DNA of 64,000 nucleotides from an uncultured Lachnospiraceae bacterium (GCA_964545045.1 CAZJEN010000019.1:743-64742); one strand, 5' to 3'. Counted from the first letter of the stretch, positions 4,887 through 52,209 are shown. Numbers and translations are program-made. Notes: generated by a model not told the origin, from the sequence alone.

Positions 4887-6269
4887 ATGAAACGCAAAGG
4901 ACTTTATGTATTGGCAACAGCAGCGATGTTAGCATTGGCGGCAGGCTGCGGAAATAATCAGGGAGAAGAGAAACCGCAGAATCAGGTGACGGAGGCAGTG
5001 TCCCCTACGGAGGCGACGGAGGCAACCGCTACCCCGGAACCGACGGCAACCCCTGCACCGACCGCGACACCGGTACCGGCAAACTATATGGAGGCCAACG
5101 GGATTGAGGTGCTGGGAGCAGGGAATTATACCTGCAAGGGTTATGTAGCACAGGAATGGGATGAGAACGGAGAGGTAGTGGTAGCTCTTGCGGATTGTGA
5201 GTACCTTTTTGAGGTGACGGAAGAGGATAACGGAGACGGGACAAAAACTATTTATGCAGCTTTAAGCCAGATACCGTATGTAACGGAGAATGGCGGTTGG
5301 AGTGCCTATATAATGGGAGGTTTTGTAGATTTACAGACCGGAAAGTCTTTTGTGCCGATGAATCGGGATGTGGCGCAGATTACGATGTTAAAGCAGGAGG
5401 ATAAAGAATATGAGTTGCAGCTTGCGGTGGAGTATGAGCCGCCGTCTGTAACCTATCCGTATTATACGGAGAAGTATACCTTGGTTTGCCCGTCAGACTA
5501 TGAAGATGCAGGATTTTATATCACCAGCTGTGATAGCAATGCAGATTATGAGGCGTATGGGGAACGTAAGGGGCTTTGGAAAAAGTTAAATTATATCCGT
5601 CACGGAGAAGCGGAGCTGTTTGTGTTCGGCGTGAATAAGGGCCTGGTAACCGAACAGAAGAGACCGATAGACGGTGCGGAGCTTGCCGAGGAGAATTATT
5701 TCGAGACAAACGGTTTTACTGCAAAGGGTGAAGGAACCTATACCTGGCTGGGTATGGAAGCAACACGAAGATGGAACGAAGAAGCAGGACATTGGGAGTC
5801 GGTTTCTCTGGAAGAGAATGAGTTTACGACTACGATTTCTATCACGGAGGAGTCTTTGGGAGACGGAACTAAGATGATTAAGGGAACCTTTATTGAGCTA
5901 CTCGAGCAGATATCCGAGGATGAAGTGAAAATACCGTACAAAAGGTATGGTATTGCAGACAAGAAAACAGGTCTGGCATATCGAGCACGTACCTATAATT
6001 TGGCGGAACCGTATGTGTTGGAGAAGGACGGAGAGGAGATTTCTATATTCGTGGGAATGGAAATTGTTGAAGAAAATCTGGGCGGTGGCAAGATAGACTC
6101 CAGGACAACCTTTACGTTGATTTGCCCGGAAGATTATAATGATGCAGTAATTTACCTGACTGCTGATGTGGAGATAGATGAGGATGAGCATACGTATTTT
6201 AATGAGCAGGAAGTGTTCTCCTTGAACGAACTGGAGCATGGCGATTATGAGCTGATGTTCTTCCAATAA
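4887..6269 (+). CDS. Lipoprotein, paralog 3 (two domains)
   Basis: RBS AAGGAGAGG; lipobox LAAGC; same PT linker and NYMEANGIEVLGAG entry motif; second domain FTLICPEDYNDAVIYLT. Confidence 0.85.
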   Translation: MKRKGLYVLATAAMLALAAGCGNNQGEEKPQNQVTEAVSPTEATEATATPEPTATPAPTATPVPANYMEANGIEVLGAGNYTCKGYVAQEWDENGEVVVALADCEYLFEVTEEDNGDGTKTIYAALSQIPYVTENGGWSAYIMGGFVDLQTGKSFVPMNRDVAQITMLKQEDKEYELQLAVEYEPPSVTYPYYTEKYTLVCPSDYEDAGFYITSCDSNADYEAYGERKGLWKKLNYIRHGEAELFVFGVNKGLVTEQKRPIDGAELAEENYFETNGFTAKGEGTYTWLGMEATRRWNEEAGHWESVSLEENEFTTTISITEESLGDGTKMIKGTFIELLEQISEDEVKIPYKRYGIADKKTGLAYRARTYNLAEPYVLEKDGEEISIFVGMEIVEENLGGGKIDSRTTFTLICPEDYNDAVIYLTADVEIDEDEHTYFNEQEVFSLNELEHGDYELMFFQ

Positions 6270-6315
6270 ACAAGATGTCATACAGCGTAGAAATAGGGTG
6301 GGGAAAAGTTAGTGC

Positions 6316-6344
6316 TTGTATTTTTAATTTACTTATGATATGAT
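6316..6344 (+). promoter_or_regulatory. Candidate promoter of the ABC-F leader transcript
   Basis: TTGTAT (6316-6321), 17-nt spacer, TGaTATGAT (6336-6344). Confidence 0.45.
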
Positions 6345-6587
6345 GAGGATAATAAAAGGAAAGGCGCAGTTTGCGTAAGGTGAGGCAATGAGTAACAGAT
6401 AGTTTTTTCGGACAGGACAAACAGGATTGATAGAAGCCTAGGATATTGTATAGGTTTGTTTGTGTATGCCGAAATCAGACTATCGCACTTATGTACCGAG
6501 CCTTTGAAGGATGTCATGTGGAGCGTGAAATGTAGGGTTTTTTAGGAAGTTCCGGTTTCACAGACATGTAATAGGTTTGATTTGTGT

Positions 6588-6622
6588 AAGTCTGCTTTCG
6601 GTATGAGAGCAGACTTTCTTTC
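6588..6622 (+). terminator. Terminator-like hairpin inside the ABC-F leader (candidate attenuator)
   Basis: AAGTCTGCT-11 nt-AGCAGACTT followed by TCTTTCGT; located 165 nt upstream of the ABC-F start. Confidence 0.45.
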
Positions 6623-6752
6623 GTGCAGGCAAAGTGAGCATGCGAGCAATCCGCGTGTGCTTGCACACAAGCGGATGCGCAGTCATGCGAACGCGCCCAC
6701 GACCGAGCGACATTGTCGCGAGGTGCGTGTGGTGCGAAGCACAGCCTGCACG
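6622..6752 (+). repeat. GC-rich extragenic palindrome B
   Basis: Outer pairing CGTGCAGGC / GCCTGCACG; inner pairings ATCCGC-GTGTGC-TT-GCACAC-AA-GCGGAT and GCGAC-ATT-GTCGC. Confidence 0.45.
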
Positions 6753-6785
6753 GATAAGAACTACAGGCTTCGGTTAGGAGGCACT

Positions 6786-8339
6786 ATGTTACAGATTAAA
6801 AATTTAACCATTACCCATAAAAAGGATTTGCGCTCCATCGTACAGAACTTTTCCCTCGTATTAAACGACGGGGACAAGGCGGTAATGATCGGAGAGGAAG
6901 GCAACGGGAAGTCCACGGTGTTAAAGTGGATTTATGACCCGGAACTGGTGGAAGATTACGCAGAGGGACAGGGAGAGCGTATTTTAAACAGAGAGCGGCT
7001 GGGGTATCTGGCCCAGGAGCTGCCGGCGGAACATAAGGAAAAGACCTTATACGAGTATTTTTCGGAGGAGCCGGCGTTCTGGGAGCAGACGCCGAAGGAT
7101 TTGAGTAAAATGGCGGGAGAGTTCGGCCTTTCTACTGAGTTTTTCTATGGAGAGCAGAAGCTTGCGACCCTCTCCGGCGGCGAGAAAATCAAGGCTCAGC
7201 TACTACGGCTCATAATGGAGGAGCCGACGGCGCTTCTTTTGGACGAGCCGAGTAACGACATTGATATCGAGACTCTGGAGTGGCTGGAACGGTTTATTCT
7301 GGATTGGAAACATATCGTACTTTACATTTCTCATGATGAAACTCTCATTGAGCGTACCGCCAATATGGTCATCCACATGGAGCAGTTAAAGCGGAAGACC
7401 GAAAGCAGATATACAGTGGCAAAGATGCCGTATGAGCAGTATATCGCAGAGCGGAAGGCAGGCATGGAACGGCAGGAGCGTCTGGCGCAAAACGACCGGA
7501 GGGAGAAGGAAATCCGGGATGAGAAGCTGCGGAAGATGGAGCAAAAGGTTGGTAGCAGACTGGATAATATCTCTAAAGCAGAACGGGATGCCATCGGTCA
7601 AATGATGAAAAAGAAGATGAAGGTTGTAAAGAGCATGGAAAAGCGGTTCGAGCGGGAAGATGAGAATATGACCGAAATGCCGGAGGCAGAGGAAGCAATT
7701 TTCTTTAAACTGGGAGATAAGGAGTCCAAGATACCTGCAGGAAAGACTGTGATTGAGTACAGTCTGGACCGTCTTATAACCCCGGACGGAGAACGGGTGC
7801 TGGCAAAAGATATTAAGCTACTGGTCCGTGGCTCCGAGAAGCTTTGCTTTATCGGGAAAAACGGTGCGGGAAAGACCACATTGCTTCGGAAAATGGCAGA
7901 GGAGCTGCTGGCACGAAAGGATATTCATGCGGAATATATGCCGCAAAATTATGAAGAATTGATGGACTTGACCATGACGCCGGTGGATTTTCTGGATACC
8001 ACGGGGGAGAAGGAGGAGCGTACCAGAATCCGCACTTATCTCGGTTCTTTAAAGTATACTGCAGACGAAATGGATCATCCGATGTCGGAGTTGTCCGGCG
8101 GACAGAAGGCTAAGGTATTGCTCCTGAAGATGAGTCTGTCCAAAGCCAATGTGTTGATCCTTGACGAGCCGACAAGAAACTTTTCTCCGTTGTCGGGAGG
8201 TGTGATTCGAAAGCTCCTTGCGGAGTTTCCGGGAGCCATACTCAGTATTTCTCACGACCGAAAATATATGGAGGAAGTGTGTGATACGATTTACCGGCTG
8301 ACGGAGGAAGGACTTCGCAAGGTGGAAAAAGAAGAGTAA
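6786..8339 (+). CDS. ABC-F family ATPase (two ABC domains, long charged linker, no membrane domain)
   Basis: ATG 6786 after GGAGG. Walker A GEEGNGKST and GKNGAGKTT; signatures LSGGEKIKA and LSGGQKAKV; Walker B LLLDEP and LILDEP. The inter-domain linker is a ~100-aa Arg/Lys/Glu-rich stretch. Confidence 0.9.
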   Translation: MLQIKNLTITHKKDLRSIVQNFSLVLNDGDKAVMIGEEGNGKSTVLKWIYDPELVEDYAEGQGERILNRERLGYLAQELPAEHKEKTLYEYFSEEPAFWEQTPKDLSKMAGEFGLSTEFFYGEQKLATLSGGEKIKAQLLRLIMEEPTALLLDEPSNDIDIETLEWLERFILDWKHIVLYISHDETLIERTANMVIHMEQLKRKTESRYTVAKMPYEQYIAERKAGMERQERLAQNDRREKEIRDEKLRKMEQKVGSRLDNISKAERDAIGQMMKKKMKVVKSMEKRFEREDENMTEMPEAEEAIFFKLGDKESKIPAGKTVIEYSLDRLITPDGERVLAKDIKLLVRGSEKLCFIGKNGAGKTTLLRKMAEELLARKDIHAEYMPQNYEELMDLTMTPVDFLDTTGEKEERTRIRTYLGSLKYTADEMDHPMSELSGGQKAKVLLLKMSLSKANVLILDEPTRNFSPLSGGVIRKLLAEFPGAILSISHDRKYMEEVCDTIYRLTEEGLRKVEKEE

Positions 8340-8463
8340 TGTTTGTATTCAAAAAGTCAAGCAAACCGCTGCTACATTTGCTATAGTATACTTAAGCAAT
8401 GAAGGAACCCGATTCATTGACAAAGAAGCGCTTCTTTTAGGGAAAAGAGAAAGAGGGTATCGT

Positions 8464-9261
8464 ATGAACAAAATCGAAATACTGACAACGGCATTGGAAT
8501 ACATCGAGGCCAATCTTTCGTCGGAGATTAAAACGGAGGACGTGGCCGGGGCATGCTATTGCTCCAAAGCGGCATTAGAGAAGCTGTTCCGGTGTCTCAA
8601 TCACATGAGTGTTCATGATTATGTGATTCGCAGACGCATGACACTGGCAGCCCGGATGATGCGGCAGCAACCGGAGGTAAGTGTACTGGATGTGGCACTT
8701 GCTTACGGGTACAGTACCAATGAGTCCTTTTCCAGAGCTTTTAAAAAGGTGTGGGACTGCAATCCGTCGGAGTTTAAAGAAAATCCCCTGCATTTCGAGT
8801 TGTTTCCGAGACGTTACCCGCCTACCATGAAAGGAGACGCGATAATTATGAAAAATGTAGACATCAGTGAATTATACGAGTTTTTTAAGACGAGAAAGAA
8901 TTGTTATTTTGTATGCTGCGACATTGATCATTTGGTGCCGATTAACGAGATTTCCAATAAAGCCGGAGACATGGCAATTTTAGAGTCTTTGCGCCGTATG
9001 GAAGCAGAAGCGGGAGCTGAGGATGTGATTTTCCGTATCGGCGGCGATGAATTTGCCCTGTTAACCGACAGTGAAGACGCAGCGTATGCGGAAGCTATTG
9101 CTGAGCGTATCCGTGCAAACAACGGCAAGCCGATTGTATTTGAAGGAAAAGAAATCCCGCTCAGCCTTCACATTGCGGTAACGAAGTATTCTTCCGGGAA
9201 TGTTCGTTATAAGGATTTGTTCGAGCAGTTACACAATGCCATTATGGAAGTGAAAAAATAA
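8464..9261 (+). CDS. AraC-type HTH domain fused to a GGDEF domain
   Basis: N-terminal AraC signature (GYSTNESFSRAFKKVW); C-terminal RIGGDEFALL motif. Confidence 0.8.
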   Translation: MNKIEILTTALEYIEANLSSEIKTEDVAGACYCSKAALEKLFRCLNHMSVHDYVIRRRMTLAARMMRQQPEVSVLDVALAYGYSTNESFSRAFKKVWDCNPSEFKENPLHFELFPRRYPPTMKGDAIIMKNVDISELYEFFKTRKNCYFVCCDIDHLVPINEISNKAGDMAILESLRRMEAEAGAEDVIFRIGGDEFALLTDSEDAAYAEAIAERIRANNGKPIVFEGKEIPLSLHIAVTKYSSGNVRYKDLFEQLHNAIMEVKK

Positions 9262-9275
9262 AAGGATACAAAGGG

Positions 9276-9309
9276 AAAAGAGAGTGTCGTAAAACGGCAC
9301 TCTCTTTTT
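9276..9309. terminator. Bidirectional terminator between convergent genes
   Basis: AAAAGAGAGTG ... CACTCTCTTTTT. Confidence 0.7.
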
Positions 9310-9327
9310 AGAGGGGGGATTAATCTA

Positions 9328-10356
9328 TTATAAGTTTGATATCAGCGCATCATGGATGTCTTTGTTGATTTCACCGGAGACATCAAAGTTCATCTCTTTG
9401 TAGCTCCATACGGCCCTTGGAATCCGAAGCTCTTCAAGAGCGGTGTGGATGTCCTCAAACCAACGTAAGGTGCTTTCTCGGTCTGCATTATCGATAACGC
9501 CGTATTCGCCGCAATACATCGGGACATCAAATTTTTCGGCAATTTCCATGGCCGGAGCAAACAATCTTCTGAAATAGTCCGCGGATAAAACGTTATCTCC
9601 GAGGGTGTCGAATTCTGCGTCGAAATCGGTTCCGTAAACCATTGCAGACTCTGCACGGGTCTCGGCGGCGGTACGCGGATACGTGGTGTGGAAATCTCTC
9701 GGCATGGTCTTGATCCAACCTGCAGCCTGATGGGTGAAAATCATCGGACTGTAGCAGTGGAAGGTAAAGACAATATTCTCGTCTGCCGGAGCCTCTAACA
9801 GAGACAGTCCGTAAATACTGCTGTTATAGATACCACCGATAATAATCTTTTTCGCAGGAGCAAGGGTGCGGATTGCCGCGATGGTCTCTGCGGAAATCTT
9901 GTTCCACGGCTCTGCGGTGGAACGGTCTGTAACCTCGTTCAACAACTCAAAGGCAATGTTTTCATTATCACCGTAGCGTCTTGTAAACTCCATCCAAAGC
10001 TTGATAAACATATCCTGAAGTCCGCGGTCGGTGAAGAAATTGCAATAGGTTTCATCATCGAATACGTAACCGCAGGTTTTATGTAAATCCAAAACCAGCT
10101 TTAAACCGTTGGCTTCACACCATGCAATACAGTCATCGATATGACGGAAGCCGGATTCGATAAAGGAACCGTCCTCATTCTGTACTACATTGTAGTCTAC
10201 CGGGAGACGGACATGGTCCATGCCCCAGGAGGCAATCAAATCAATGTCTTTCTTCGTAATAAAGGTGCTGTAATGCTCTTCGTTGTACTTGTTACCGCAC
10301 TGGGAGAGCCAGCCTCCTAAATTAATACCCTTTAAATATCCCTTGAATTCTCGCAT
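9328..10356 (-). CDS. Glycoside hydrolase family 5 (cellulase-like)
   Basis: GINLGGWLSQ entry motif, acid/base FELLNEV, nucleophile region YCGEYG. Confidence 0.85.
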   Translation of the reverse strand: MREFKGYLKGINLGGWLSQCGNKYNEEHYSTFITKKDIDLIASWGMDHVRLPVDYNVVQNEDGSFIESGFRHIDDCIAWCEANGLKLVLDLHKTCGYVFDDETYCNFFTDRGLQDMFIKLWMEFTRRYGDNENIAFELLNEVTDRSTAEPWNKISAETIAAIRTLAPAKKIIIGGIYNSSIYGLSLLEAPADENIVFTFHCYSPMIFTHQAAGWIKTMPRDFHTTYPRTAAETRAESAMVYGTDFDAEFDTLGDNVLSADYFRRLFAPAMEIAEKFDVPMYCGEYGVIDNADRESTLRWFEDIHTALEELRIPRAVWSYKEMNFDVSGEINKDIHDALISNL

Positions 10357-10650
10357 ATGAATCGCTCCTTTCTAAAACCGACGTTTTCAGAATGTCGCGT
10401 ACAATATTCCATGTTTCAACGTCAGTATAGCACATTCTCATAAAAAGGATACAATAAAGTTGTGTTTTTTGTCAATGTGTTGTTATGAAGTTTGTGAACT
10501 TATTAATATTTTGGGAATGGAATGAACAGATTGTAAGCGCTATCATTGTAAGTTAACAGAAAAAGTGATACAATAAAATTGACTGCACAGGCAGAGAAAG
10601 TCGGAGAAAATCCGACATAGAGTGTTGGCTTTTGAAGGAGGATAGTCTGT

Positions 10651-13600
10651 ATGACAAAAAGGCGTCTTTGGAATGACGGGTGGGAGTTTGCGGAGAAGCA
10701 GATCGGTACCCCGGCAGAAGAGATTTTTATGGAAAAAGAGAGCTGGTTAGCGGTGGATTTGCCGCATGACTGGCTGATTTACGATGCAACGGATTTGTAC
10801 CGGGACGGTGAAGGCTGGTATAGAAAGAGTTTTTCCTATATGCCGTCAGAGGAGAGAGTGTCTTTACGGTTTGACGGTGTTTATATGAATTGTACCGTAT
10901 ATGTAAATGAGAAGCGGGTATACGACTGGAAATACGGATATTCTGCCTTTGAGTTTGATATAACGGATGCTTTATGGGCCGGAGAGAATACGGTTTATGT
11001 ACAGGTGCGGCATCAGAGTCCGAATTCCCGTTGGTATTCGGGTGCGGGGATTTACCGTAATGTCTGGTTTGTGTCCCGTCCGCAGGTACACTTGGCCAGT
11101 GACGGTGTGTATGCACATATTCTGGAGCACAACGGAGATTACGTTCTGACGGTAACTACGGAGGCGGAGTGCGGTGCCGGAACAAATCTGGGTGCTTTGG
11201 ACCTGTCCGATACGGCAGCGGCGTTCCGTGAGGGCGTTCCGGGGAATTTAGCTGCAGCCGGGGATGTGAGCGGTGTCAAAGTAAGACATACGGTTCTTTC
11301 ACCGGAGGGGGATGTGGTAACATGCAGTGAAGGTAGTCCGCTTGTGGGAGCCTTTGCAACCGATACCCAGGAGTTCTTTGTGAAGATACCGAAGGTGTGG
11401 GACATCGAGAATCCGGTGCTGTATACTTTGGTAACGGAGCTGGTAAAGGAGGAAGCTGTGGTGGATGAACTGAGACAGTCCATCGGTTTCCGTAAGCTTT
11501 TGTTTACGACGGAGCAAGGCCTTTTCTTAAACGGCAGACATATCAAGTTAAACGGTGTTTGCGAGCATCATGATTTGGGTTGCCTGGGTGCGGCATTTAA
11601 TAAAGCGGCATTACGCAGACAGTTTGAAAAGCTGAAGAAAATGGGTGTGAATGCCCTGCGTACTTCTCACAACATGCCGGCGAAGGAGTTTATGGAACTG
11701 GCGGATGAGATGGGCTTTTTGGTAGTGGCGGAGGCCTTTGACATGTGGGAGCGTCCGAAGACGCAGTACGATTATGCCCGCTTTTTAAAGGAATGGTATC
11801 CTGCGGATGTGGCAAGCTGGATTCGTCGTGACCGGAATCATCCGTCCCTTCTTATGTGGAGTATCGGTAATGAAATTTACGATACCCATGCGGATGAACA
11901 CGGATTGGAGATTACGAAATATTTGACGGAAGCAGTGCATACCCATGACCCGCGGGAGAATGCACCGGTGACCATCGGCTCCAATTATATGCCGTGGGAA
12001 AATGCACAGAAATGTGCGGATTATGTGAAGTATGCGGGCTATAACTACGGAGAGATGTGTTACGAGGAGCATCATAAGGCACATCCGGACTGGTACATTT
12101 ACGGCAGTGAGACCTGTTCCACGGTACAGAGCCGGGGCGTATACAAGTTCCCGTTTGAACAGTCTGTTTTGTGTGATGATGACGAGCAGTGTTCCTCTCT
12201 CGGAAATTGTACCACCAGCTGGGGAGCAAAGTCTACGGAGCAGTGTATTTATTCCGACAGAGATGCGAAGTTTTCTATGGGACACTTTATCTGGACCGGT
12301 TTTGACTATATCGGAGAGCCGACTCCGTACCATACGAAGAATTCTTACTTCGGGCAGATTGATACGGCGGGCTTTTTCAAGGACCAGGCCTATATGTATC
12401 AGGCGGAATGGACGGATTACAAGAAAGCTCCGATGGTACACATTTTCCCGTATTGGGACTTCTCTTTGGGACAGACGGTAGATGTGCGGATTTGCTCCAA
12501 TGCCCCACGGGTAGAGCTGTTTGTAAACGGTGTGTCTCAGGGAGTTTATGATATTGACCATGAGAACGGGAAGAAGCTTCTGGGGCATTGGCAGGTGCCT
12601 TATGTGCCGGGCGAGATTACAGCGGTGGCTTATGATGAAAACGGTGTCGAGATAGCGAGAGACACCGAGCATTCCTTCGGCGACCCGGCAAGGCTTGTGT
12701 TAAAGCCGGAAAGTACGGTGATGAAGGCAGACGGCAGAGATTTAATCTTTGTGGAAATCGGTACAGAGGATATGGACGGATATCCGGTAAAAAATGCCAC
12801 CAACCGTGTTCATATTTCTGTAGAAGGTGCGGGACGTCTGGTAGGTCTGGATAACGGCGACAGTACAGATTTCGATCATTATAAAGCAACCAGCCGGAGA
12901 ATGTTTTCCGGAAAGCTCCTGGCGGTAATCGCCGCAAAGAAGGAGCCGGGAGACATTGTGGTGAAGGCCACCTCTGTGGGACTTCCGGAGGCGTCGGTTA
13001 CGTTACGGGCAGAAGCTTCGGCGGTACCGGAGGGCGTGGCTGCGACGGAGGACAATGCGGTAGCGGAAGCAAGATGGCTTGCGAAGAAAGAAGAAGCATT
13101 TGTGGCACAATGGAAGAAACGTATGGCAGAGGAGGTTCCGGTACGTCGTATCGACATTGTGACGGAGGGAACGAACCGTTTGGATGCAGAGCGTAAGGAG
13201 GTAACTCTTACGGCAAAGGTATATCCGGAAAACGCTACCTATCAGGAAATTTTGTGGCGCGTGACCAACAACGGCGGTGTGGATTCCAACATTGCGAAAC
13301 TGGCCGATACGGAAACGGGAAAGACCTCCTTCAGCAAGGAAAGCGGACTTTCTTACGGCAAGAACGTTACGTTAACTGCGCTCGGTGACGGCGAGGTCAG
13401 AGTACGTTGTAATACGAAAAACGGCGGGGATAAGATTCGCTTGATTTCCGATATGGACTTTGAGATTTCCGGTATCGGAACGGCATTTATCAATCCGTAC
13501 GAGCTGGTATCCGGTAGCCTGTACAGCCGGTATGACGGCGTGGTAACCAACGGAAACGAAAGAGGCGTGGCTACCGCCAGAGACGGGAAGACCACGGTGA

Positions 13601-45365: not shown

Positions 45366-45701
45366 ATGGAGCAATCCACATTTGAACTTATATACAATGT
45401 CGTCAAACAGATTCCAAAAGGTTCCGTCGCAACTTATGGCCAGGTTGCTGCCCTTGCCGGAAATAAACGTTGGGCACGTGTCGTAGGCTACGCCCTTCAT
45501 GCCAATCCGGATCCGGAACATATTCCATGCCATAGAGTGGTGAATCGGGAAGGTGCGGTATCGGAAGCCTTTGCCTTCGGTGGCGAAAACCGGCAGGTGG
45601 AGCTTCTGCGTGAGGAAGGAGTGGAAGTTACCGGTAAGAAGGTGGACCTCACGAAGTACCGCTGGAACCGGATGACGATGGAGATGTTGGGGAAGGAATA
45701 G
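45366..45701 (+). CDS. MGMT-family DNA-binding domain protein (single-domain alkyltransferase-like, Cys retained)
   Basis: 111 aa; IPCHRVVN active-site-type motif; no N-terminal domain. Confidence 0.8.
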   Translation: MEQSTFELIYNVVKQIPKGSVATYGQVAALAGNKRWARVVGYALHANPDPEHIPCHRVVNREGAVSEAFAFGGENRQVELLREEGVEVTGKKVDLTKYRWNRMTMEMLGKE

Positions 45702-45741: not shown

Positions 45742-45785
45742 AAAAGTAACGGCCAGTTGTCAAACGTTGACCGTTACTTTTTTAT
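45742..45785. terminator. Bidirectional terminator sharing its stem sequence with the terminators of the two repeat modules
   Basis: AAAAGTAACGG ... CCGTTACTTTTTT; compare AAAAAAGTAACGGTC...GACCGTTACTTTTTT at 51805-51849. Confidence 0.65.
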
Positions 45786-46210
45786 TGTCTTTTTACTTTG
45801 ATTTTCGTAAATTCTATAATTTCTTTTTTATCCGTTTCGGATAGTTTTTCAAAATAATACAAAAGTTCTTTTTCTAAAACAGTATGGAACTGGTACTTTT
45901 TCTTATTGGTTTCGTTGCTGAAGTGACTGAGGTACTCGCCGAAATCTTCTGCGGTATGATCAGGTGTGGAGGTATTAAAAAAATAAATAGAAGGATCAAG
46001 CTCGACGGTATTTGCCATAAGATCATCGACGGTAATGCCATAAAACTTGGCAAGCTTGTAGAGTATATCATTGCTTGGAGTTCTTTTGCCGGTTTCGTAA
46101 TGGGAATAGGTTTGTCTGACAACACCAAGCGCGGCAGCTACATCGGCTTGATTATAGTTGTGAAGTTTTCGAAGTTCTTTTATCTTGCACGCAAGAGTCT
46201 TGTTTGTCAT
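45782..46210 (-). CDS. XRE-family HTH regulator (candidate controller of the adjacent operon)
   Basis: ATG 46210 after GAGGTG; HTH NQADVAAALGVVRQTYSHYETGKRTP; divergent from the methyltransferase operon. Confidence 0.8.
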   Translation of the reverse strand: MTNKTLACKIKELRKLHNYNQADVAAALGVVRQTYSHYETGKRTPSNDILYKLAKFYGITVDDLMANTVELDPSIYFFNTSTPDHTAEDFGEYLSHFSNETNKKKYQFHTVLEKELLYYFEKLSETDKKEIIEFTKIKVKRQ

Positions 46211-46285
46211 GGAAGTCACCTCGTATCGTTTAACTGTCAGAATGAAAAATCATAAGTAAAGTATAGTCGGTTTGTAATACAAAGA

Positions 46286-46363
46286 TGCTACGCGATGTAG
46301 CAAATATTTGACAAAAATGTAAAATAGGTGTAGCATTATGTTAAAATGCTACAAAGTGTAGCG
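46286..46363. promoter_or_regulatory. Divergent promoter region with repeated TGCTAC/GTAGCA operator-like boxes
   Basis: TGCTAC-GCGAT-GTAGCA (46286-46302) and TGCTAC-AAAGT-GTAGCG (46347-46363), plus GTAGCA at 46330-46335. TTGACA at 46308-46313; TGtTAAAAT at 46339-46347. Confidence 0.6.
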
Positions 46364-46443
46364 TTTTGCCGTTGCATAGAACTGCGGGAAGTCGGTTTGG
46401 ATTGAAACGGTGGTCAAAATCCGAGGGAGGAGACGTTGCACTT

Positions 46444-47205
46444 ATGGAAAAACAGGTGAAATCTAAGCAGCGCGTGGCTGATCACGGAGAGGTTTTTACC
46501 GCTGAACGTGAAGTGCAGGCAATGTGCGATTTGGTGAAGCAAGAGACGGAACGAATCGATAGTCGTTTTTTGGAGCCAGCTTGCGGTGACGGAAATTTTC
46601 TTTCTGCGATTTTGGAACGAAAATTAACGGTTGTTACAAAAAAGTACAGACGTAGCGCCTATGACTGGGAGCGTAACGCATTATTGGCGTTGGGAAGCAT
46701 TTATGGGGTAGATATTATGCCGGATAATGTTCTTGCCTGTCAGGAGCGTCTGTTTGAAATTTGGAATAAAGAATACAAGAAGGTTTGCAAAAAAGAATGC
46801 AATGATGCAACGAGAGAAGCGGCGAGGTTTATCCTTTATTTGAACATTGTCTGTGGAAATGCACTGACATTGCTGTGCTGTGATGATGAGGGGAAGGAAC
46901 TGGAAACCCCGATTGTCTTCTCGGAATGGACCTTCCCTTTTAATGACGCACGTATGCAACGTAAGGATTATACGTTCGCTGAACTTTTGGCGGCGGAAGA
47001 TTCAAACGTTAAGAAGAAAAAGCAGGAGGGTGAGTCCTTCGTTCAAGGAACGCTCTTCGATATGGAGTCGGAGAAGGTGGGTGATGAAGGCCGATTCTTG
47101 CAGCAATATATTGCACATTATCGGTGCATTCAAGAGGATGATACCCGTCGAAAGGGAGCAAATCCCTACTTATATCTGACAAAGGAGGAAACGGACAATG
47201 GCTAA
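46444..47205 (+). CDS. DNA-methyltransferase-like protein with a degenerate catalytic motif and no target-recognition domain
   Basis: HGEVFT, motif I LEPACGDGNFL, IYGVDIMPDNV and NIVCGNALT are present. TFPF occupies the position where (D/N)PP(Y/F) is expected. 253 aa. Confidence 0.7.
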   Translation: MEKQVKSKQRVADHGEVFTAEREVQAMCDLVKQETERIDSRFLEPACGDGNFLSAILERKLTVVTKKYRRSAYDWERNALLALGSIYGVDIMPDNVLACQERLFEIWNKEYKKVCKKECNDATREAARFILYLNIVCGNALTLLCCDDEGKELETPIVFSEWTFPFNDARMQRKDYTFAELLAAEDSNVKKKKQEGESFVQGTLFDMESEKVGDEGRFLQQYIAHYRCIQEDDTRRKGANPYLYLTKEETDNG

Positions 47206-48763
47206 CGGTCTTTTTGATAATGTGTATAATCCTGATGTGTTATCTTGTTTGGCAAACCTCTCTAACGATGAGGTATTTACACCGCCTGAAATGGTAAATC
47301 AGATGTTGGATATGCTTCCACAGGAATTGTTTCGCAATCCTGATACCACCTTTTTGGACCCGGCTTGTAAAACAGGAGTTTTCCTGCGAGAGATTGCAAA
47401 GAGACTGATTGTCGGTCTGGAACCTCAGTTCCCGGATTTGCAGGAACGACTGGACCATATTTTTCATAAGCAGTTGTATGGAATTGCGATTACGGAGTTA
47501 ACAAGTCTTCTTTCGAGAAGAGGGTTGTATTGTTCGAAGTATCCGAATAGTGAGTTTTCGGTGTCTTATTTTGATGAGAAACACCAAGACGGAAATATTC
47601 GTTTTAAGAAAATACGACACACATGGGAACCGGAAAAACTCATGAGAGACCTAAACGGGCGAAAAATTGGAAAGTGCATCTGGTGTGGAGCTTCGAGAGA
47701 TGAGTATGACCGGTCGAAAGAGTTGGAGACGCATGCTTATGAATGGATTCATGCAAATCAGCCAGAGGAGATATTTGGTATGAAATTCGATGTAATAATT
47801 GGTAATCCGCCTTATCAGTTAAGTGATGGCGGTAATGGTGCAAGTGCAAAACCGATATATAATCTATTTGTGGAACAGGCTAAGAAATTAAATCCGCGCT
47901 TCTTGATTATGATTATTCCATCTCGTTGGTTCGCCGGAGGAAAAGGTTTGGACGATTTTCGTGAAGCTATGTTAACAGATAGAAGGGTAGTTAGGATAGT
48001 TGACTATGTAAATGCAAAGGATTGTTTCGCTGGGATTAGCCTCGGTGGAGGTGTGTGTTATTTTTTATGGGATAGAGACAATCCGCGGAAATGTGAGTTT
48101 ACAAATATTCATGATGGAAAAGAATCGACAGATTTACGAGATCTTTCTGAGTTTCCTGTATTTGTTCGATACAATGAAGCGATATCTGTTATTCGGAAAG
48201 TATTAGATAAAAATGAACAAAAGGTTTCGGAAGTTGTTGGGTCAAGAAATCCATTTGGTCTTTCATCCGCTGTTCGTGGTGATAAAGACAAGACGGGAAT
48301 TACTGTATATTCCAGTGGCGGGATCGGAAATATAGCAGAAAAAGAGGTAACACAAGGAAAACATTTAATAAATCAATATAAGGTTATGATTAGTAAGGTA
48401 ACAAGTGAGCATGCTGGTGAGCCTGATAAGAGTGGAATGTTTTCTGTACTGTCAACAGTACGTGTTTTGAAACCACAAGAAGTGTGTACGGATTCCTATT
48501 TGATTGCGTATGAATCTAACAATGCCGTATTTGCAGAAAATTTTGCCCAATATATGTGTACAAAATTTTTTAGATTTCTTTTGCTTCAGGCTGTTTCATC
48601 GATTAATCTTTCAAAGGATAAGTTTCAATTTGTTCCTATGCAAGATTTCACGAAAACATGGACTGATGAAATGTTGTATGAAAAATATGAACTTACGCAG
48701 GATGAAGTTGAGTTTATTGAGTCTATGATGAAAGAAAAGGAATTGGAGGGAGGAATTAGGTAA
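47198..48763 (+). CDS. N6-adenine DNA methyltransferase (gamma-class, Eco57I-like methylase domain)
   Basis: AGGAGG RBS; 8-nt overlap with the upstream gene; DEVFTPPEMV, LDPACKTGVFL, FDVIIGNPPYQLSDGG; ~250-aa C-terminal region (putative TRD). Confidence 0.85.
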   Translation: MANGLFDNVYNPDVLSCLANLSNDEVFTPPEMVNQMLDMLPQELFRNPDTTFLDPACKTGVFLREIAKRLIVGLEPQFPDLQERLDHIFHKQLYGIAITELTSLLSRRGLYCSKYPNSEFSVSYFDEKHQDGNIRFKKIRHTWEPEKLMRDLNGRKIGKCIWCGASRDEYDRSKELETHAYEWIHANQPEEIFGMKFDVIIGNPPYQLSDGGNGASAKPIYNLFVEQAKKLNPRFLIMIIPSRWFAGGKGLDDFREAMLTDRRVVRIVDYVNAKDCFAGISLGGGVCYFLWDRDNPRKCEFTNIHDGKESTDLRDLSEFPVFVRYNEAISVIRKVLDKNEQKVSEVVGSRNPFGLSSAVRGDKDKTGITVYSSGGIGNIAEKEVTQGKHLINQYKVMISKVTSEHAGEPDKSGMFSVLSTVRVLKPQEVCTDSYLIAYESNNAVFAENFAQYMCTKFFRFLLLQAVSSINLSKDKFQFVPMQDFTKTWTDEMLYEKYELTQDEVEFIESMMKEKELEGGIR

Positions 48764-51699
48764 TGGCCCAGGAGTTTTTCTTACAACGCCCATCAGTAAC
48801 CCCAACAATCTATGTTTATAACCTCCCGCAAGTAACTACCCACAAAGGCTATGTAAAGGTTGGCTATACTGACCGTGACGCAGAAACACGTATCAATGAG
48901 CAGATGCATACCAGTGGCCTAAAAGCCAACATTCTTTATACGGAATCTGCAATGTGTTCCGACGGTTCCGTTTTTACTGACAAAGAGGTACATCGTGTTT
49001 TGCGTCGTAAAGGCTTCCGTCAGATGAATGAGGGCAATGACCGGAATGAATGGTTTAAGTGTACAGTGGCAGATGTCAAGGCGGCGATTGTGGAGTTAAA
49101 GGAAGGTATTATTACGGAAGCCAGTCGTACCGCTACATTTAAAATGCGTCCGGAGCAACATCATGCTGTAAATCGTACAATGGAGTATTATGCATATGCA
49201 GCGAAGGAAGAACCGGGCAGGCCGCCGAAGTTCCTTTGGAACGCAAAGATGCGTTTTGGTAAGACCTTCGCAGCGTATCAGCTTGCAAAGAAGATGGACT
49301 TTAAGCGTATCCTTGTTTTGACTTTTAAACCTGCGGTGGAATCTGCATGGCGCGAGGATTTGATGACCCATGTAGACTTTGATGGCTGGCAGTTTATTTC
49401 CAATAAGGATGCTGCCGGAAATCATGTGAACATTGATCGTGAGTATATTTATGCGGATAAAAAGAGACCGATTGTGGTGTTCGGTTCTTTTCAGGATTTG
49501 TTAGGAACAAATGAAGCAGGAGGCATCAAAGCCAAGAATGAGTTCATTCATTCGGATAATTGGGATCTCGTGATTTTTGATGAATATCATTTCGGTGCCT
49601 GGCGTGAAAATGCAAGAAAGTTGTTCGAAAATCCGGATGAAGAAGAAACGGCAGATTTTGATGTTGAGAAGTACGGTTTGGAAGAAGCAGGAAACGCTTA
49701 CAATGAGACGTTTTTGCCAATCACAACCGGTCACTATTTGTTCCTGTCGGGCACACCGTTCCGCGCGATCAACAGTGGCGAGTTTATTGAGGACCAGATT
49801 TATAACTGGACGTATTCCGATGAACAGCGTGCAAAAGAAACCTGGGTGGGTTCTAACAATCCATACGCCGCATTACCTCGTATGGTGATGCTTACCTATC
49901 GTATTCCGGACAGCATTCGTCAGATTGCTATGCAGGGGGAATTTAACGAATTTGACCTTAATGTATTCTTTTCGGCAAAAGGCAAGGGTGACGAGGCGAA
50001 GTTTGTATATGAAAATGAAGTACAGAAGTGGCTTGATCTTATCCGCGGTTCTTATCTGCCGTCTAATATCGACGATATGAAGCTGGGACAGGATAAACGT
50101 CCTCCGATGCCGTATTCCGATACTCGTTTACTGAATGTGCTGTCACATACACTTTGGTTTTTGCCGAATGTTGCATCTTGTCAGGCAATGTACAATTTGA
50201 TGATGCAGAAGCAGAATGCATGGTTCAATCAGCGTTATACGATTAACGTTTGCGCCGGGACCAGAGCCGGTATCGGTTTGGATGCGCTTGTTCCTGTGCA
50301 GCGTTCTATGGGAGACCCGCTTGTAACGCAGACCATTACCTTGTCTTGCGGTAAGTTGACAACCGGTGTTACCGTTAGGCCTTGGACCGGAGTTTTTATG
50401 CTGCGTAATCTGAAAAGTCCCGAAACCTATTTCCAGACTGCATTCCGTGTACAGTCTCCGTGGGAAATTACGGATGAGTCCGGGAATCGTCAGATTATGA
50501 AGCAGGAGTGTTATGTGTTTGATTTTGCGTTGGACCGTGCGCTTCGCCAAATTTCCGATTATAGTTGCCGCTTGGATGTAAGGGAATCCAATCCGGAAAA
50601 GAAGGTTGCAGAATTTATCAGCTTCCTTCCGGTACTTGCTTATGACGGAAGCAGTATGCACCAAATCAGTGCGCAGGATATTTTGGATATTGCTATGGCA
50701 GGTACGTCTGCAACACTTCTTGCAAAGCGTTGGGAGTCTGCGTTGCTGGTTAATGTAGATAATGATACGCTTACCCGTCTGATGGCTAGTAAGGAGGCAA
50801 TGAATGCGCTTATGAATATTGAGGGCTTCCGTTCTCTGAACCAGGATATTCAGACCATTATTAATAAGTCCGAAGCAGTTAAGAAAGCCAAAAAGGACGG
50901 CGGAGAAAAGACACAGAAAGAAAAGAAGGAACTTACCGAGCAGGAAAAAGAATATAAGTCCATGCGTAAGAAGATTCAGGAAAAGCTGATTAAATTTGCT
51001 ACCCGTGTTCCGATATTTATGTATCTTACGGATTATCGTGAACGTTCCTTAAGGGATGTGATTACACAACTTGAACCGGGGCTCTTTAAAAAGGTTACCG
51101 GTTTGGATGTGAAGGATTTTGAATTGTTGTGCTCTCTCGGGGTGTTCAATGCAAACCTGATGAACGATGCTATTTTTAAATTTAAGCGTTATGAAGACTC
51201 CAGTCTTTCTTATACCGGTATCGATAAACACAAGGATAAGGATGTCGGCGGTTGGGATACCGTAATTAAACGAGAGGAGTATGACAGGCTTTTTTATAAC
51301 CAGCAGGCGACAATGGAACAGCCGGCGATTTTTGAAGTACCGGTTGCGGCAGAAGACGTCCCGGTTTCGGAAAGAAAACCGGCGGGAAGTCAGAGAAGCG
51401 TTTCGGTAAGTTCCGAACCACAGGCAAAGTCCGGAGAACTGCGATTGATTACCGCGCAGTATGGAGTGAAGTCGCCTGTATATGCAATGAAGGTGGCGGA
51501 TGAACCGTCGGAGTACGGAGTATCCGAGGTGCCGAAGATTAAGAGAGGGGACCAGGTAATACATAAGACCTTCGGAGAAGGTACCATTACCGGAATCGAC
51601 AAGGCACAGACGCATATTCGTGTTACATTTGCCGTGGGGGAAAAGATGTTTATCTATCCGGAAGCATTTGAAAAAGGATTTCTTGTTTTAAAGGAGTAA
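48763..51699 (+). CDS. GIY-YIG/T5orf172-like nuclease domain + SF2 (ResIII-like) helicase + PcrA/UvrD-Tudor-like C-terminal domain
   Basis: TAATG overlap with the methylase. N-terminus TIYVY...VKVGYT...NEWF. Helicase motifs RFGKTF, VIFDEYH, LSGTP, QTAFRVQSP. C-terminus GDQVIHKTFGEGTITGIDKAQTHIRVTF. Confidence 0.8.
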   Translation: MAQEFFLQRPSVTPTIYVYNLPQVTTHKGYVKVGYTDRDAETRINEQMHTSGLKANILYTESAMCSDGSVFTDKEVHRVLRRKGFRQMNEGNDRNEWFKCTVADVKAAIVELKEGIITEASRTATFKMRPEQHHAVNRTMEYYAYAAKEEPGRPPKFLWNAKMRFGKTFAAYQLAKKMDFKRILVLTFKPAVESAWREDLMTHVDFDGWQFISNKDAAGNHVNIDREYIYADKKRPIVVFGSFQDLLGTNEAGGIKAKNEFIHSDNWDLVIFDEYHFGAWRENARKLFENPDEEETADFDVEKYGLEEAGNAYNETFLPITTGHYLFLSGTPFRAINSGEFIEDQIYNWTYSDEQRAKETWVGSNNPYAALPRMVMLTYRIPDSIRQIAMQGEFNEFDLNVFFSAKGKGDEAKFVYENEVQKWLDLIRGSYLPSNIDDMKLGQDKRPPMPYSDTRLLNVLSHTLWFLPNVASCQAMYNLMMQKQNAWFNQRYTINVCAGTRAGIGLDALVPVQRSMGDPLVTQTITLSCGKLTTGVTVRPWTGVFMLRNLKSPETYFQTAFRVQSPWEITDESGNRQIMKQECYVFDFALDRALRQISDYSCRLDVRESNPEKKVAEFISFLPVLAYDGSSMHQISAQDILDIAMAGTSATLLAKRWESALLVNVDNDTLTRLMASKEAMNALMNIEGFRSLNQDIQTIINKSEAVKKAKKDGGEKTQKEKKELTEQEKEYKSMRKKIQEKLIKFATRVPIFMYLTDYRERSLRDVITQLEPGLFKKVTGLDVKDFELLCSLGVFNANLMNDAIFKFKRYEDSSLSYTGIDKHKDKDVGGWDTVIKREEYDRLFYNQQATMEQPAIFEVPVAAEDVPVSERKPAGSQRSVSVSSEPQAKSGELRLITAQYGVKSPVYAMKVADEPSEYGVSEVPKIKRGDQVIHKTFGEGTITGIDKAQTHIRVTFAVGEKMFIYPEAFEKGFLVLKE

Positions 51700-51756: not shown

Positions 51757-51851
51757 AAGAAAGTGCTACCGATAGAACGGTTGCCCTGAAATTTGACGAA
51801 TTACAAAAAAGTAACGGTCAGCTTACCAGGCGAGGACCGTTACTTTTTTGC
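51757..51851 (+). ncRNA. Candidate ~95-nt convergent sRNA (copy 2)
   Basis: Promoter upstream; terminator AAAAAAGTAACGGTC...GACCGTTACTTTTTT with a compensatory T>G / A>C change relative to copy 1. Confidence 0.45.
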
Positions 51852-52139: not shown

Positions 52140-52209
52140 TTGACAAATGTTTCTTGTGGTGTTATTTTATAGACACAAGGTATTAGCACTCCATCGAGTT
52201 GAGTGCTAA
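52140..52209 (+). promoter_or_regulatory. hrcA-dnaK operon promoter with CIRCE operator
   Basis: TTGACA at 52140-52145; perfect CIRCE TTAGCACTC-N9-GAGTGCTAA at 52183-52209. Confidence 0.9.

Follow-up and report, generated by a model that had tools for sequence, protein, structure and literature searches.

The locus

Here, we analyse a cassette of three genes in a stretch of 64,000 nucleotides from an uncultured Lachnospiraceae bacterium (GCA_964545045.1, CAZJEN010000019.1:743-64742), which is called the window below and from whose first letter all positions are counted. The cassette probably encodes a restriction-modification (R-M) system. Its genes follow one another on the + strand: gene 1 (46444-47205, 253 amino acids) encodes what looks like a dead half-methylase, gene 2 (47198-48763, 521 amino acids) a gamma-class N6-adenine DNA methyltransferase (MTase) with a target-recognition region, and gene 3 (48763-51699, 978 amino acids) a putative nuclease-motor subunit. 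The true start of gene 1, listed as TTG 46366, is the ATG at 46444, which is the start used in all homologues and is supported by independent gene calls. By direct reading of the sequence, genes 1 and 2 overlap by 8 nt (ATGGCTAA, 47198-47205), which is the most frequent arrangement among related loci, and genes 2 and 3 overlap by TAATG (48761-48765), with a GGAGG-type ribosome-binding site ahead of each downstream start. The three coupled open reading frames (ORFs) with their ATGGCTAA and TAATG overlaps, a divergent gene of the XRE type and operator-like repeats upstream are all where the first-pass annotation of this DNA, which was made from the sequence alone, had placed them.

Gene 2, a predicted methylase with a variable recognition region

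Gene 2 carries the methylase motifs in the order X-I-IV (DEVFTPP, FLDPACKTGVFL and GNPPYQ, respectively), and a variable C-terminal half comes next. It matches the Pfam Eco57I model at 2e-35 (122.8 bits, cut-off 25.3) and, in PADLOC, the models MTase_II (PDLC03375, 2.3e-51) and REase_MTase_IIG (PDLC03626, 1.6e-42), while Pfam MmeI_Mtase gives no match. By these sequence characters gene 2 belongs to the gamma-class N6-adenine methyltransferases of the Eco57I family, and the motif order together with the Eco57I match bears out the earlier view that it is a complete enzyme. Its closest solved relatives are the BREX proteins PglX/BrxX, at E=1.6e-4 only.

The two halves of the protein differ in conservation. 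Per 20-residue block, conservation amounts to 0.75-0.84 in the catalytic half and to 0.31-0.55 in residues 301-480. The same contrast is seen against the trio in the complete gut phage genome NatCom_35866 (PV036449.1, Ca. Heliusvirales; 5685-10916, our locus L004), where gene 1 is 82% and gene 3 is 87% identical to the copy in the window, whereas gene 2 is only 55% identical and the divergence lies in residues 300-480. Such a low identity of gene 2 beside the high identity of genes 1 and 3 is the pattern expected for diversifying specificity. In motif I the gene 2 family reads DPxCK(S/T)GVF (PACKTGVF in the window; alignment A5), that is, an invariant Lys, which is K58 in the window (~47369-47371), replaces the first Gly of GxG that most N6-MTases have. 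The paralogous N-lobes of genes 1 and 2 differ systematically in this loop for S-adenosylmethionine (SAM), gene 1 having the canonical PACGDGNF and gene 2 the Lys form. In M.TaqI, Ala stands at the first-Gly position of motif I.

Gene 3, a putative nuclease-motor protein

The domains of gene 3 are, in order, a T5orf172/GIY-YIG domain (~11-115), a Snf2-like ATPase of superfamily 2 (SF2; ~125-600), a helical region resembling a "coupler" (~660-840), a disordered linker and a UvrD-type Tudor domain (~929-976). Pfam supports the N-terminal domain by T5orf172 (1.5e-10, 41.9 bits, cut-off 20) and MUG113 (4e-8, 34.1 bits, cut-off 22.3) and the ATPase by ResIII (3.9e-7, 30.6 bits, cut-off 22.5), and PADLOC PDLC03626 matches gene 3 at 8.3e-33. 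In 79 sequences from many phyla, the T5orf172 residues Y17, K32, G34, T36, R43, D73, E96 and W97 are invariant, and so are SF2 motifs I, II, III, V and VI (GKT, DEYH, SGTP, TGVT and QxxFRxQ, respectively). The modelled N-terminal domain has the order beta-beta-alpha-beta-alpha-beta-alpha at a predicted local distance difference test score (pLDDT) of 70-87, which, with the sequence, places it in the T5orf172 branch of the GIY-YIG superfamily. A T5orf172 domain is a proven nuclease in ICP1 Odn, which keeps the conserved Arg and Glu (PMC8263062).

The motifs, the ResIII match and the Pfam matches of gene 3 relatives, which include SWI2_SNF2 and SNF2-rel_dom, identify the ATPase as a Snf2-like SF2 helicase/translocase. 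In a Foldseek search with the gene 3 core, which was made from a poor model, ISWI, Chd1, INO80 and ALC1 come first, and Snf2, ZorD, XPB and HsdR are also found. It should be noted that the full-length AlphaFold model is poor (pLDDT 51.5, predicted TM-score 0.30), and only its T5orf172 and Tudor domains and a part of RecA1 were used. Sequence searches of the PDB with single proteins and family profiles gave no informative relatives of gene 3; matches to NAP1 were dismissed as coiled-coil noise.

The Tudor tail lies below the Pfam thresholds (PcrA_UvrD_tudor, E=0.01; CarD_TRCF_RID, E=0.004). It is modelled as a five-stranded barrel with pLDDT 76-89, which matches the C-terminal domain of UvrD (7egs_B, TMt 0.73; 7egt_B, TMt 0.80). 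The tail is present in 32 of the 79 homologues (~40%), and the remainder are ~840 amino acids long and lack it. The composite proposed at the outset for gene 3, GIY-YIG/T5orf172 followed by SF2 motor and Tudor tail, is thus upheld by the Pfam T5orf172 and ResIII matches and by the Foldseek match of the tail to UvrD.

Gene 1, a conserved half-methylase

Gene 1 corresponds to the N-lobe of a gamma-class N6-adenine MTase, with motif X (RVADHGEVFT), motif I (FLEPACGDGNFL), YGVDI and NIVCGNAL. An alignment of 29 diverse homologues is devoid of any NPPY-like motif IV, and gene 1 has no target-recognition domain (TRD) either; it lacks both characters of an active DNA methyltransferase. The conserved core stops at about residue 185 in these homologues, and its invariant or nearly invariant residues are R10, G15, E16, V17, T19, E44, P45, C47, G48, G50, F52, Y87, G88, N95, N134, G138 and W162. 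MTase models align with the first ~110-140 residues only; for example, PADLOC MTase_II matches residues 5-108 at 5.5e-10, and Pfam MmeI_Mtase gives a weak match (E=0.002). The family profile matches the motif X-motif I region of the Type I subunit HsdM (3ufb, 5e-4) and of MmeI. By hhalign, the gene 1 and gene 2 families are related with 97% probability (E 2.9e-11), where gene 1 residues 14-72 align with gene 2 residues 23-82 only; consequently, the homology between the two is confined to motifs X and I.

The alignment and the hhalign result support the description of gene 1 as a truncated SAM-binding half. The term pseudo-methyltransferase given to it in the first-pass annotation is apt in that NPPY and TRD are missing, and misleading in that the gene is not simply decayed: it forms a conserved family, whose core is also found in full chimeric methylases. 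This family comprises 366 clusters at 50% identity (E<=1e-30) and is unrepresented by any PADLOC, NCBIfam or Pfam model. Judged by its intact SAM-binding motifs, gene 1 appears to be a maintained protein family and more than a decayed copy of a methylase. Since chimeras of a gene 1 core with a gene 2 C-half exist (see below), the core is the structural equivalent of a methylase N-lobe and probably competent to bind SAM. The AlphaFold2 model of gene 1 is poor (pLDDT 57) because its input was confined to sequences at least ~70% identical; nothing below E=1.7 was found with it in Foldseek, and it was discarded.

Beyond the core, residues ~185-253 form a variable tail of low confidence or disorder, which holds a short motif of the QxxLF type, QGTLF, and a C-terminal Y..HY motif. 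Among 152 non-redundant tails, which come from the homologues of alignment A4 and from loci L009-L088 and L213, x-L-F-[SGDANEQ] occurs in 80 against 13 expected from shuffles, and Q..[LIM]F in 36 against 2 expected. The consensus of the peptide is Q-L-S-L-F-S-D, followed by the second C-terminal motif "P.KEY..HY", and about half of the family members have a tail with a QL[SD]LF-like peptide. QL[SD]LF is the motif that Dalrymple et al. in 2001 are said to have described for binding to the bacterial beta sliding clamp. Alternatively, the peptide could dock on gene 2 or gene 3.

Co-conservation and spread

The gene 3 family takes in more than 8000 clusters at 90% identity at the least (E<=1e-5), the best 120 of which are 74-92% identical to gene 3, and it includes proteins of Dehalococcoides mccartyi annotated as "GIY-YIG nuclease family protein". 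We scanned one genome per species and obtained 80 gene 3 loci with 53-92% identity, 56 of which have at least 2.5 kb upstream and were used for the count. A gene 2 homologue lies upstream of gene 3 on the same strand in all of them (56/56), and a gene 1 homologue precedes gene 2 in 53/56. Of 34 viral contigs, 31 likewise have both genes ahead of gene 3. The first-pass annotation had made its proposal depend on hidden Markov model support for the domain calls and on co-conservation of the trio in other genomes; the Pfam matches and these counts bear it out in both respects.

The hosts in the genome scan belong to the Clostridia, Bacteroidota, Fibrobacterota, Chloroflexota, Actinomycetota, Pseudomonadota, Spirochaetota, Myxococcota, Nitrospirota, Verrucomicrobiota and others. 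A gene 3 that is 53-92% identical across Bacillota, Bacteroidota, Actinomycetota, Chloroflexota, Pseudomonadota, Spirochaetota and others points to horizontal spread. The trio is also found on plasmids of Rhizobium phaseoli, Mycolicibacterium vanbaalenii and Legionella adelaidensis. In phage NatCom_35866, it is flanked by hypothetical genes of 760 and 952 amino acids and by a second DNA methyltransferase.

In 19 of the 56 loci, passenger genes lie between gene 2 and gene 3 (L015, L025, L043, L045, L050, L057, L065, L070, L071, L083 and L084 are among the loci with passengers). They occupy 0.5-3.8 kb and are variable and unrelated; by motif and by eye, they include DUF1016/YhcG-like, RhuM-like, Bro-N and AlbA_2/Schlafen-like genes and toxin-antitoxin pairs of RelB/HigA type. 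Passenger genes inside the operon have also been reported for Type I R-M systems (PMC9881135) and for Hma operons (PMC11232893).

Fusions, splits and chimeras

Genes 3 and 2 are fused into one protein of 1417-1452 amino acids on plasmids of Pediococcus (pRS5), Enterococcus, Lactiplantibacillus, Lactococcus and Bacillus. The fused protein has the order N-terminal nuclease region, helicase, MTase and TRD, and its gene is still preceded by a small gene-1-like ORF. In the fusion on the Lactococcus lactis plasmid NZ_CP065987.1 (1892-6250, locus L223), ~290 residues stand before the helicase, and they have neither a T5orf172 match nor a sequence match in the PDB. As T5orf172 is not detected there, the nuclease module may be exchangeable between lineages.

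A split of another kind occurs on an IMG/VR viral contig (L213, 5186-10312). Here, the C-half of the methylase is a separate protein of 345 amino acids that starts at FDVVIGNPPYQ, and a nuclease-helicase of 1114 amino acids carries the motif X/I half ("NQIFTPK...FADLYMKSGLY"), fused to its C-terminal end. That is, the arrangement is a circularly permuted variant, in which a gene 1 homologue with "QLSLF" is retained; three further loci (L214, L215 and L218) have the same pattern by tblastn. Because one Rossmann-type fold is divided between two proteins at this locus, the two must assemble tightly, and the split is the strongest argument for genes 2 and 3 forming one enzyme, as the natural fusions show as well. 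We also considered gene 1 as the missing N-half of a split methylase. This was rejected, because gene 1 persists as an extra gene at those viral loci, where the real N-half of gene 2 is fused to the C-terminus of gene 3.

In addition, four representative proteins of 491-532 amino acids (P0243, P0273, P0277 and P0370) join a gene-1-type core, 50-67% identical to gene 1, in frame to an NPPY/TRD C-half of gene 2 type. In the two contigs with sufficient downstream length (L225 and L226), these chimeras are orphan methylases without gene 3, and the one on L226 has a divergent helix-turn-helix (HTH) gene upstream. They look like deletion products between adjacent paralogous genes, by which an orphan methylase was left.

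Comparison with known systems

A close parallel in design is offered by the Type ISP enzymes LlaGI and LlaBIII. Both they and the present family combine a nuclease, an SF2 ATPase of the double-stranded DNA translocase type and a gamma-class N6-adenine MTase with a single TRD, in the fused relatives even in the same N-to-C order of nuclease, helicase, MTase and TRD, and both are found on plasmids of lactic acid bacteria. However, the Type ISP nuclease is an N-terminal Mrr/PD-(D/E)xK domain, whereas the nuclease here belongs to the T5orf172/GIY-YIG superfamily; and a Type ISP enzyme is a single polypeptide, whereas the present system is divided over two polypeptides, to which gene 1 is added, and has the methylase gene in front. 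Type ISP enzymes are characterised by ATP-dependent translocation from an asymmetric site and by cleavage when head-to-head enzymes collide. The fused relatives differ in that a separate gene 1 homologue is always alongside, and part of the family differs by its UvrD-like Tudor tail. No Type ISP chain in the PDB, where the structures of LlaBIII and LlaGI are presumably deposited, was matched at E<=1 from gene 2 or gene 3, as single sequences or profiles, or from a fused relative. To our knowledge, every mechanistically understood ATP-dependent restriction enzyme of Type I, Type ISP and Type III relies on a PD-(D/E)xK or Mrr nuclease for cutting, as had rightly been stated at the outset for characterised helicase-dependent R-M enzymes. 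CglI and NgoAVII have PLD nucleases.

In composition, the family is also like the DnmA(YeeA)-YeeB-YeeC cluster of Bacillus subtilis and its homologues in Vibrio crassostreae, in which an N6-methyladenine methylase is likewise combined with an SF2 helicase and a T5orf172/GIY-YIG protein and which lies in defence islands. Morgan et al. (2009) predicted this cluster to be a Type I-like R-M system with single-strand modification (PMC2731913). DnmA differs from gene 2, being an MmeI-family methylase without the PD-ExK domain and with homology to MmeI over most of its length (PMC2731913), whereas gene 2 has 521 amino acids and is of Eco57I type. By the architecture described, helicase (YeeB) and T5orf172 protein (YeeC) are separate and encoded downstream of the methylase, and the T5orf172 domain is C-terminal, whereas gene 3 is one protein with T5orf172 at its N-terminus; no gene-1-like subunit has been described for the cluster. 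DnmA-YeeB-YeeC has been studied in vivo, and some effects of the Vibrio homologues on phage sensitivity have been reported (PMC9973331).

Type I (HsdRMS) and Type III (Mod/Res) systems share with the present one a subunit in which SF2 motor and nuclease are joined, a methylase in another subunit and SAM-binding subunits; in addition, operon passengers recall Type I and the methylase-first order recalls Type III. Unlike them, the present system has no HsdS; its methylase is a gamma-class enzyme of Eco57I type with its own TRD, where Type III Mod is beta-class, and its nuclease is N-terminal and of GIY-YIG type instead of PD-(D/E)xK. Beyond the generic ResIII ATPase domain, no significant matches to HsdR or Res were found. 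The Hma system (HmaABC) and BREX-related systems are similar in having a Snf2 helicase-nuclease fusion, a methylase, a third protein, a Tudor domain on the helicase and operon passengers. They are dissimilar in that their nuclease is PD-(D/E)xK or HKD, their methylase is of DUF1156 type and their third gene encodes a DUF499 ATPase. The hma and BREX models of PADLOC do not match genes 1-3, and searches with PADLOC and NCBIfam for signature components of Hma (DUF499 or DUF1156), BREX (PglZ or BrxC), DISARM (DrmA or DrmB) and MADS (mad genes) gave only weak PglX/mad2 matches at MTase motifs, far below the cut-offs.

Among existing models, PADLOC PDLC03626 ("REase_MTase_IIG") is close to the family; it describes a REBASE-style single-chain enzyme of 1359 positions. 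Residues 121-770 of gene 3 align with model positions 151-800 and residues 195-513 of gene 2 with positions 1010-1358; as each protein covers a part of it, the model represents the fused form of the same family. Its "Type IIG" label ignores the helicase, and nothing in it corresponds to gene 1. Such systems have been flagged in print as well, in papers from NEB and Bristol: R-M systems of MTase, helicase and GIY-YIG nuclease were predicted by Morgan et al. (2009; PMC2731913), and helicase-associated relatives using GIY-YIG are mentioned by Sisakova et al. (2012; PMC3553950). We searched the literature outside REBASE and subscription-only papers, and found no paper on the trio, no biochemical study, no methylome in which a motif is assigned to this family, and nothing about a half-methylase subunit or a clamp-binding R-M subunit. 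Therefore, the assertion that the trio belongs to no described family holds for the trio itself, which is uncharacterised, and fails for its kind: the family has been recognised bioinformatically in outline, and the known kind to which it probably belongs is the ATP-dependent R-M system.

Proposed mechanism and alternatives

We think it likely that the cassette is an ATP-dependent R-M system, Type ISP- or Type I-like, which is split into subunits and uses a T5orf172 nuclease. Direct support comes from the domain identities, the conservation of putative catalytic residues, the co-conservation of the genes, the gene fusions and the variability of the TRD. From these we infer methylation, ATP-driven translocation, DNA cleavage and a defence phenotype, as well as roles for gene 1 and the XRE protein, as follows. 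Gene 2 would be the modification and specificity subunit, whose variable C-terminal region reads the target and whose NPPY site makes N6-methyladenine; to judge from single-TRD relatives, the target is likely to be asymmetric, with methylation of one strand. Gene 3 and gene 2 together would be the restriction enzyme, docked through the helical C-terminal region of gene 3, which in the fused forms leads directly into the MTase. On meeting an unmethylated target, the Snf2-like motor of gene 3 would translocate double-stranded DNA with ATP, and the N-terminal T5orf172 domain would cut it, probably at a distance from the site and perhaps upon collision or stall. Gene 1 would be a third, non-catalytic SAM-binding subunit, which attaches to the methylase or the holoenzyme and serves as its control or its tether.

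The tail peptide allows a bolder version of the last step. Gene 1 might be a new kind of R-M subunit, which tethers the methylase or holoenzyme to the replication fork, where unmethylated daughter sites are re-marked before the motor-nuclease acts. We hold this to be unlikely; if true, fork tethering by gene 1 would be an undescribed answer to the problem of self-restriction in R-M systems that modify a single strand. On this version, the family would moreover be the first among helicase-dependent R-M systems with a demonstrated nuclease of GIY-YIG type, and the UvrD-like Tudor tail would link a part of the family to RNA polymerase.

Several points weigh against an ATP-dependent R-M system. 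With an invariant Lys in motif I of gene 2, SAM binding by this protein is assumed. The AlphaFold models are poor, and the Snf2-like call draws on low-TM local matches and on the Pfam matches of relatives. Neither gene 2 nor gene 3 has sequence similarity to a solved Type ISP enzyme, HsdR or Res, and the literature searched contains no experiment on any family member. Moreover, the tests made on DnmA-YeeB-YeeC of B. subtilis revealed neither restriction nor phage defence (PMC9973331), and a composition of MTase, helicase and T5orf172 is consequently no guarantee of an active R-M system. The operon might be a relic or "domesticated" system, in which gene 2 is an orphan epigenetic methylase and genes 3 and 1 no longer restrict in this host, which is the conclusion reached for that cluster (PMC9973331); the existence of orphan chimeric methylases without gene 3 indicates that the system can decay to a lone methylase. 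In the window, however, the three ORFs are all intact and coupled in translation, the nuclease and the motor have every putative catalytic residue, and near-identical copies circulate in gut metagenomes and phages, and we regard a relic as very unlikely.

Two further explanations keep the proteins active and give them another task. One is a defence linked to methylation without classical cleavage of unmodified sites, either a BREX-like replication block or a helicase-nuclease that is triggered by phage DNA structures in the manner of Hma or Zorya ZorD; with both, the methylase would label self according to a different principle. It would agree with PglX/BrxX as the closest solved relatives of gene 2, with ZorD and Snf2 remodellers among the fold-search matches, with the recurrence of Tudor, Snf2 helicase and nuclease in BREX-related systems (PMC12839542) and Hma (PMC11232893), and with the finding that phage genomes do not avoid the DnmA motif (PMC9973331). 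Nevertheless, the component models of BREX, Hma, Zorya and DISARM give weak MTase-motif matches at most, the accessory BREX and Hma genes (PglZ, BrxC and DUF499) are absent, and the fused forms share the exact domain order of Type ISP, so that we consider such a defence quite unlikely. The other is a function for mobile elements, that is, a methylase for anti-restriction or self-protection and a helicase-nuclease for replication of the element, homing or competition. The system is indeed found on plasmids, in ~45 viral contigs and in one complete phage genome, and T5orf172 domains of phages are typical of homing-endonuclease-like genes; yet a great many taxa have it on the chromosome, where its neighbours include no consistent mobility genes, R-M systems commonly ride temperate phages and plasmids in any case, and the diversification of the TRD and the methylase-first gene order fit R-M. 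A mobile-element function therefore seems to us very improbable.

Control region and surroundings of the cassette

The XRE/Cro-C1-type HTH gene (45782-46219, - strand) encodes a protein of 142-145 amino acids, which matches Pfam HTH_3 at 8.9e-18 and, in PADLOC, capH (1.2e-10) and Control_protein (1.8e-6). Between this gene and gene 1, the intergenic control region (46282-46368, assigned to neither strand) contains the palindrome TGCTAC-N5-GTAGC twice (46286-46301 and 46347-46362), together with a GTAGCA half-site (46330-46335). These elements flank or overlap a promoter-like site, TTGACA-17-TAGCAT, on the + strand (46308-46336); divergent promoter-like sites are also present on the - strand. 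With no more than one mismatch, the palindrome pattern has five matches in the window against 0.57 expected by chance, and four of the five are the same two palindromes counted on both strands. In R-M controller circuits, a small HTH protein is conserved with the system and has palindromic C-boxes at its own promoter and at that of the R-M genes; here, an HTH_3 domain and palindromes are present, but the protein has 142-145 amino acids and its gene is divergently oriented. It is a candidate C-protein-like controller of the operon, for which binding to the palindromes is predicted. In the present copy only, the XRE protein would bind both palindromes around the operon promoter and time expression like an R-M controller.

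By phmmer, only 7 of the 48 related loci have a divergent XRE-like gene in the corresponding place, while tblastn, which is less sensitive, detected no homologue of the XRE gene in the 80 genome loci. The XRE gene is outside the conserved unit, and the proposed regulation applies to the present copy alone. The idea of an XRE-controlled operon accordingly stands as far as the gene and the palindromes are concerned, and does not extend beyond this copy to the family.

Two terminator-like hairpins bracket the cassette on the + strand. The left one (45743-45783, AAAGTAACGGCCAG-loop-GACCGTTACTTTTTT) is also the 3' end of the XRE gene, and the right one (51808-51849) has a nearly identical stem. Their common pattern, AAAGTAACGG[C/T]CAG ... 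GACCGTTACTTTTTT, has these two matches in the window, where none is expected by chance; they are in direct orientation, 6066 bp apart, and enclose exactly the XRE gene and the three genes, which gives a cassette of 6.07 kb. The hairpin is absent from all 88 related loci compared and is therefore local to the present genome. The pair may mark insertion boundaries and be a duplicated host terminator.

The cassette has a GC content of 0.423 compared with 0.460 for the window, which ranks it 9th from the bottom among 116 equally long segments; the AT richness noticed by eye in the first-pass annotation is real and modest. Its location in an island within a housekeeping block is likewise substantiated. 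In relatives with HrcA 61-73% identical, lepA-hemW-hrcA-grpE-dnaK are contiguous, and hemW and hrcA, which are adjacent there, are ~10 kb apart here. The rest of this ~10-kb island encodes a HAD hydrolase, RidA, PnuC and a 174-amino-acid ORF without a Pfam match, and is not defence-related. Neither gene 3 nor the DnaK of the window has an exact-identity protein on record, and the right junction of the cassette had 0 matches in the metagenome scan.

Directly left of the cassette (45366-45701), there is a gene for a protein of 111 amino acids, which consists of the DNA-binding/active-site domain of MGMT alone (Pfam DNA_binding_1, 8.5e-28). It retains the PCHRV cysteine motif and may be a short O6-alkylguanine transferase. 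An exact look-up of this protein yielded no empty site; the cassette was present in every contig that came up. On the other side, a perfect CIRCE element (TTAGCACTC-N9-GAGTGCTAA, 52183-52209) lies upstream of hrcA and overlaps the listed TTG start of the ORF at 52199; the start of hrcA is more probably the ATG at 52236 (METKEKGN...).

Significance

The family swaps a T5orf172/GIY-YIG nuclease into the design of ATP-dependent restriction and adds a universally conserved, dead half-methylase. The natural series of splits and fusions, that is, gene1 + gene2 + gene3, gene1 with gene3::gene2, gene3::gene2-N-half with a separate C-half, and the gene1-core::gene2-C-half chimeras, amounts to a set of ready constructs for dissecting the communication between methylase, motor and nuclease. 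The family is very common, with members among gut Bacillota and Bacteroidota, in Dehalococcoides, in soil and water bacteria, on enterococcal plasmids and those of dairy lactic acid bacteria, and in phages, and present defence-finding tools probably overlook it or label it as an orphan methylase. The system probably also shapes gene flow, phage host range and transformability in many gut and industrial strains.

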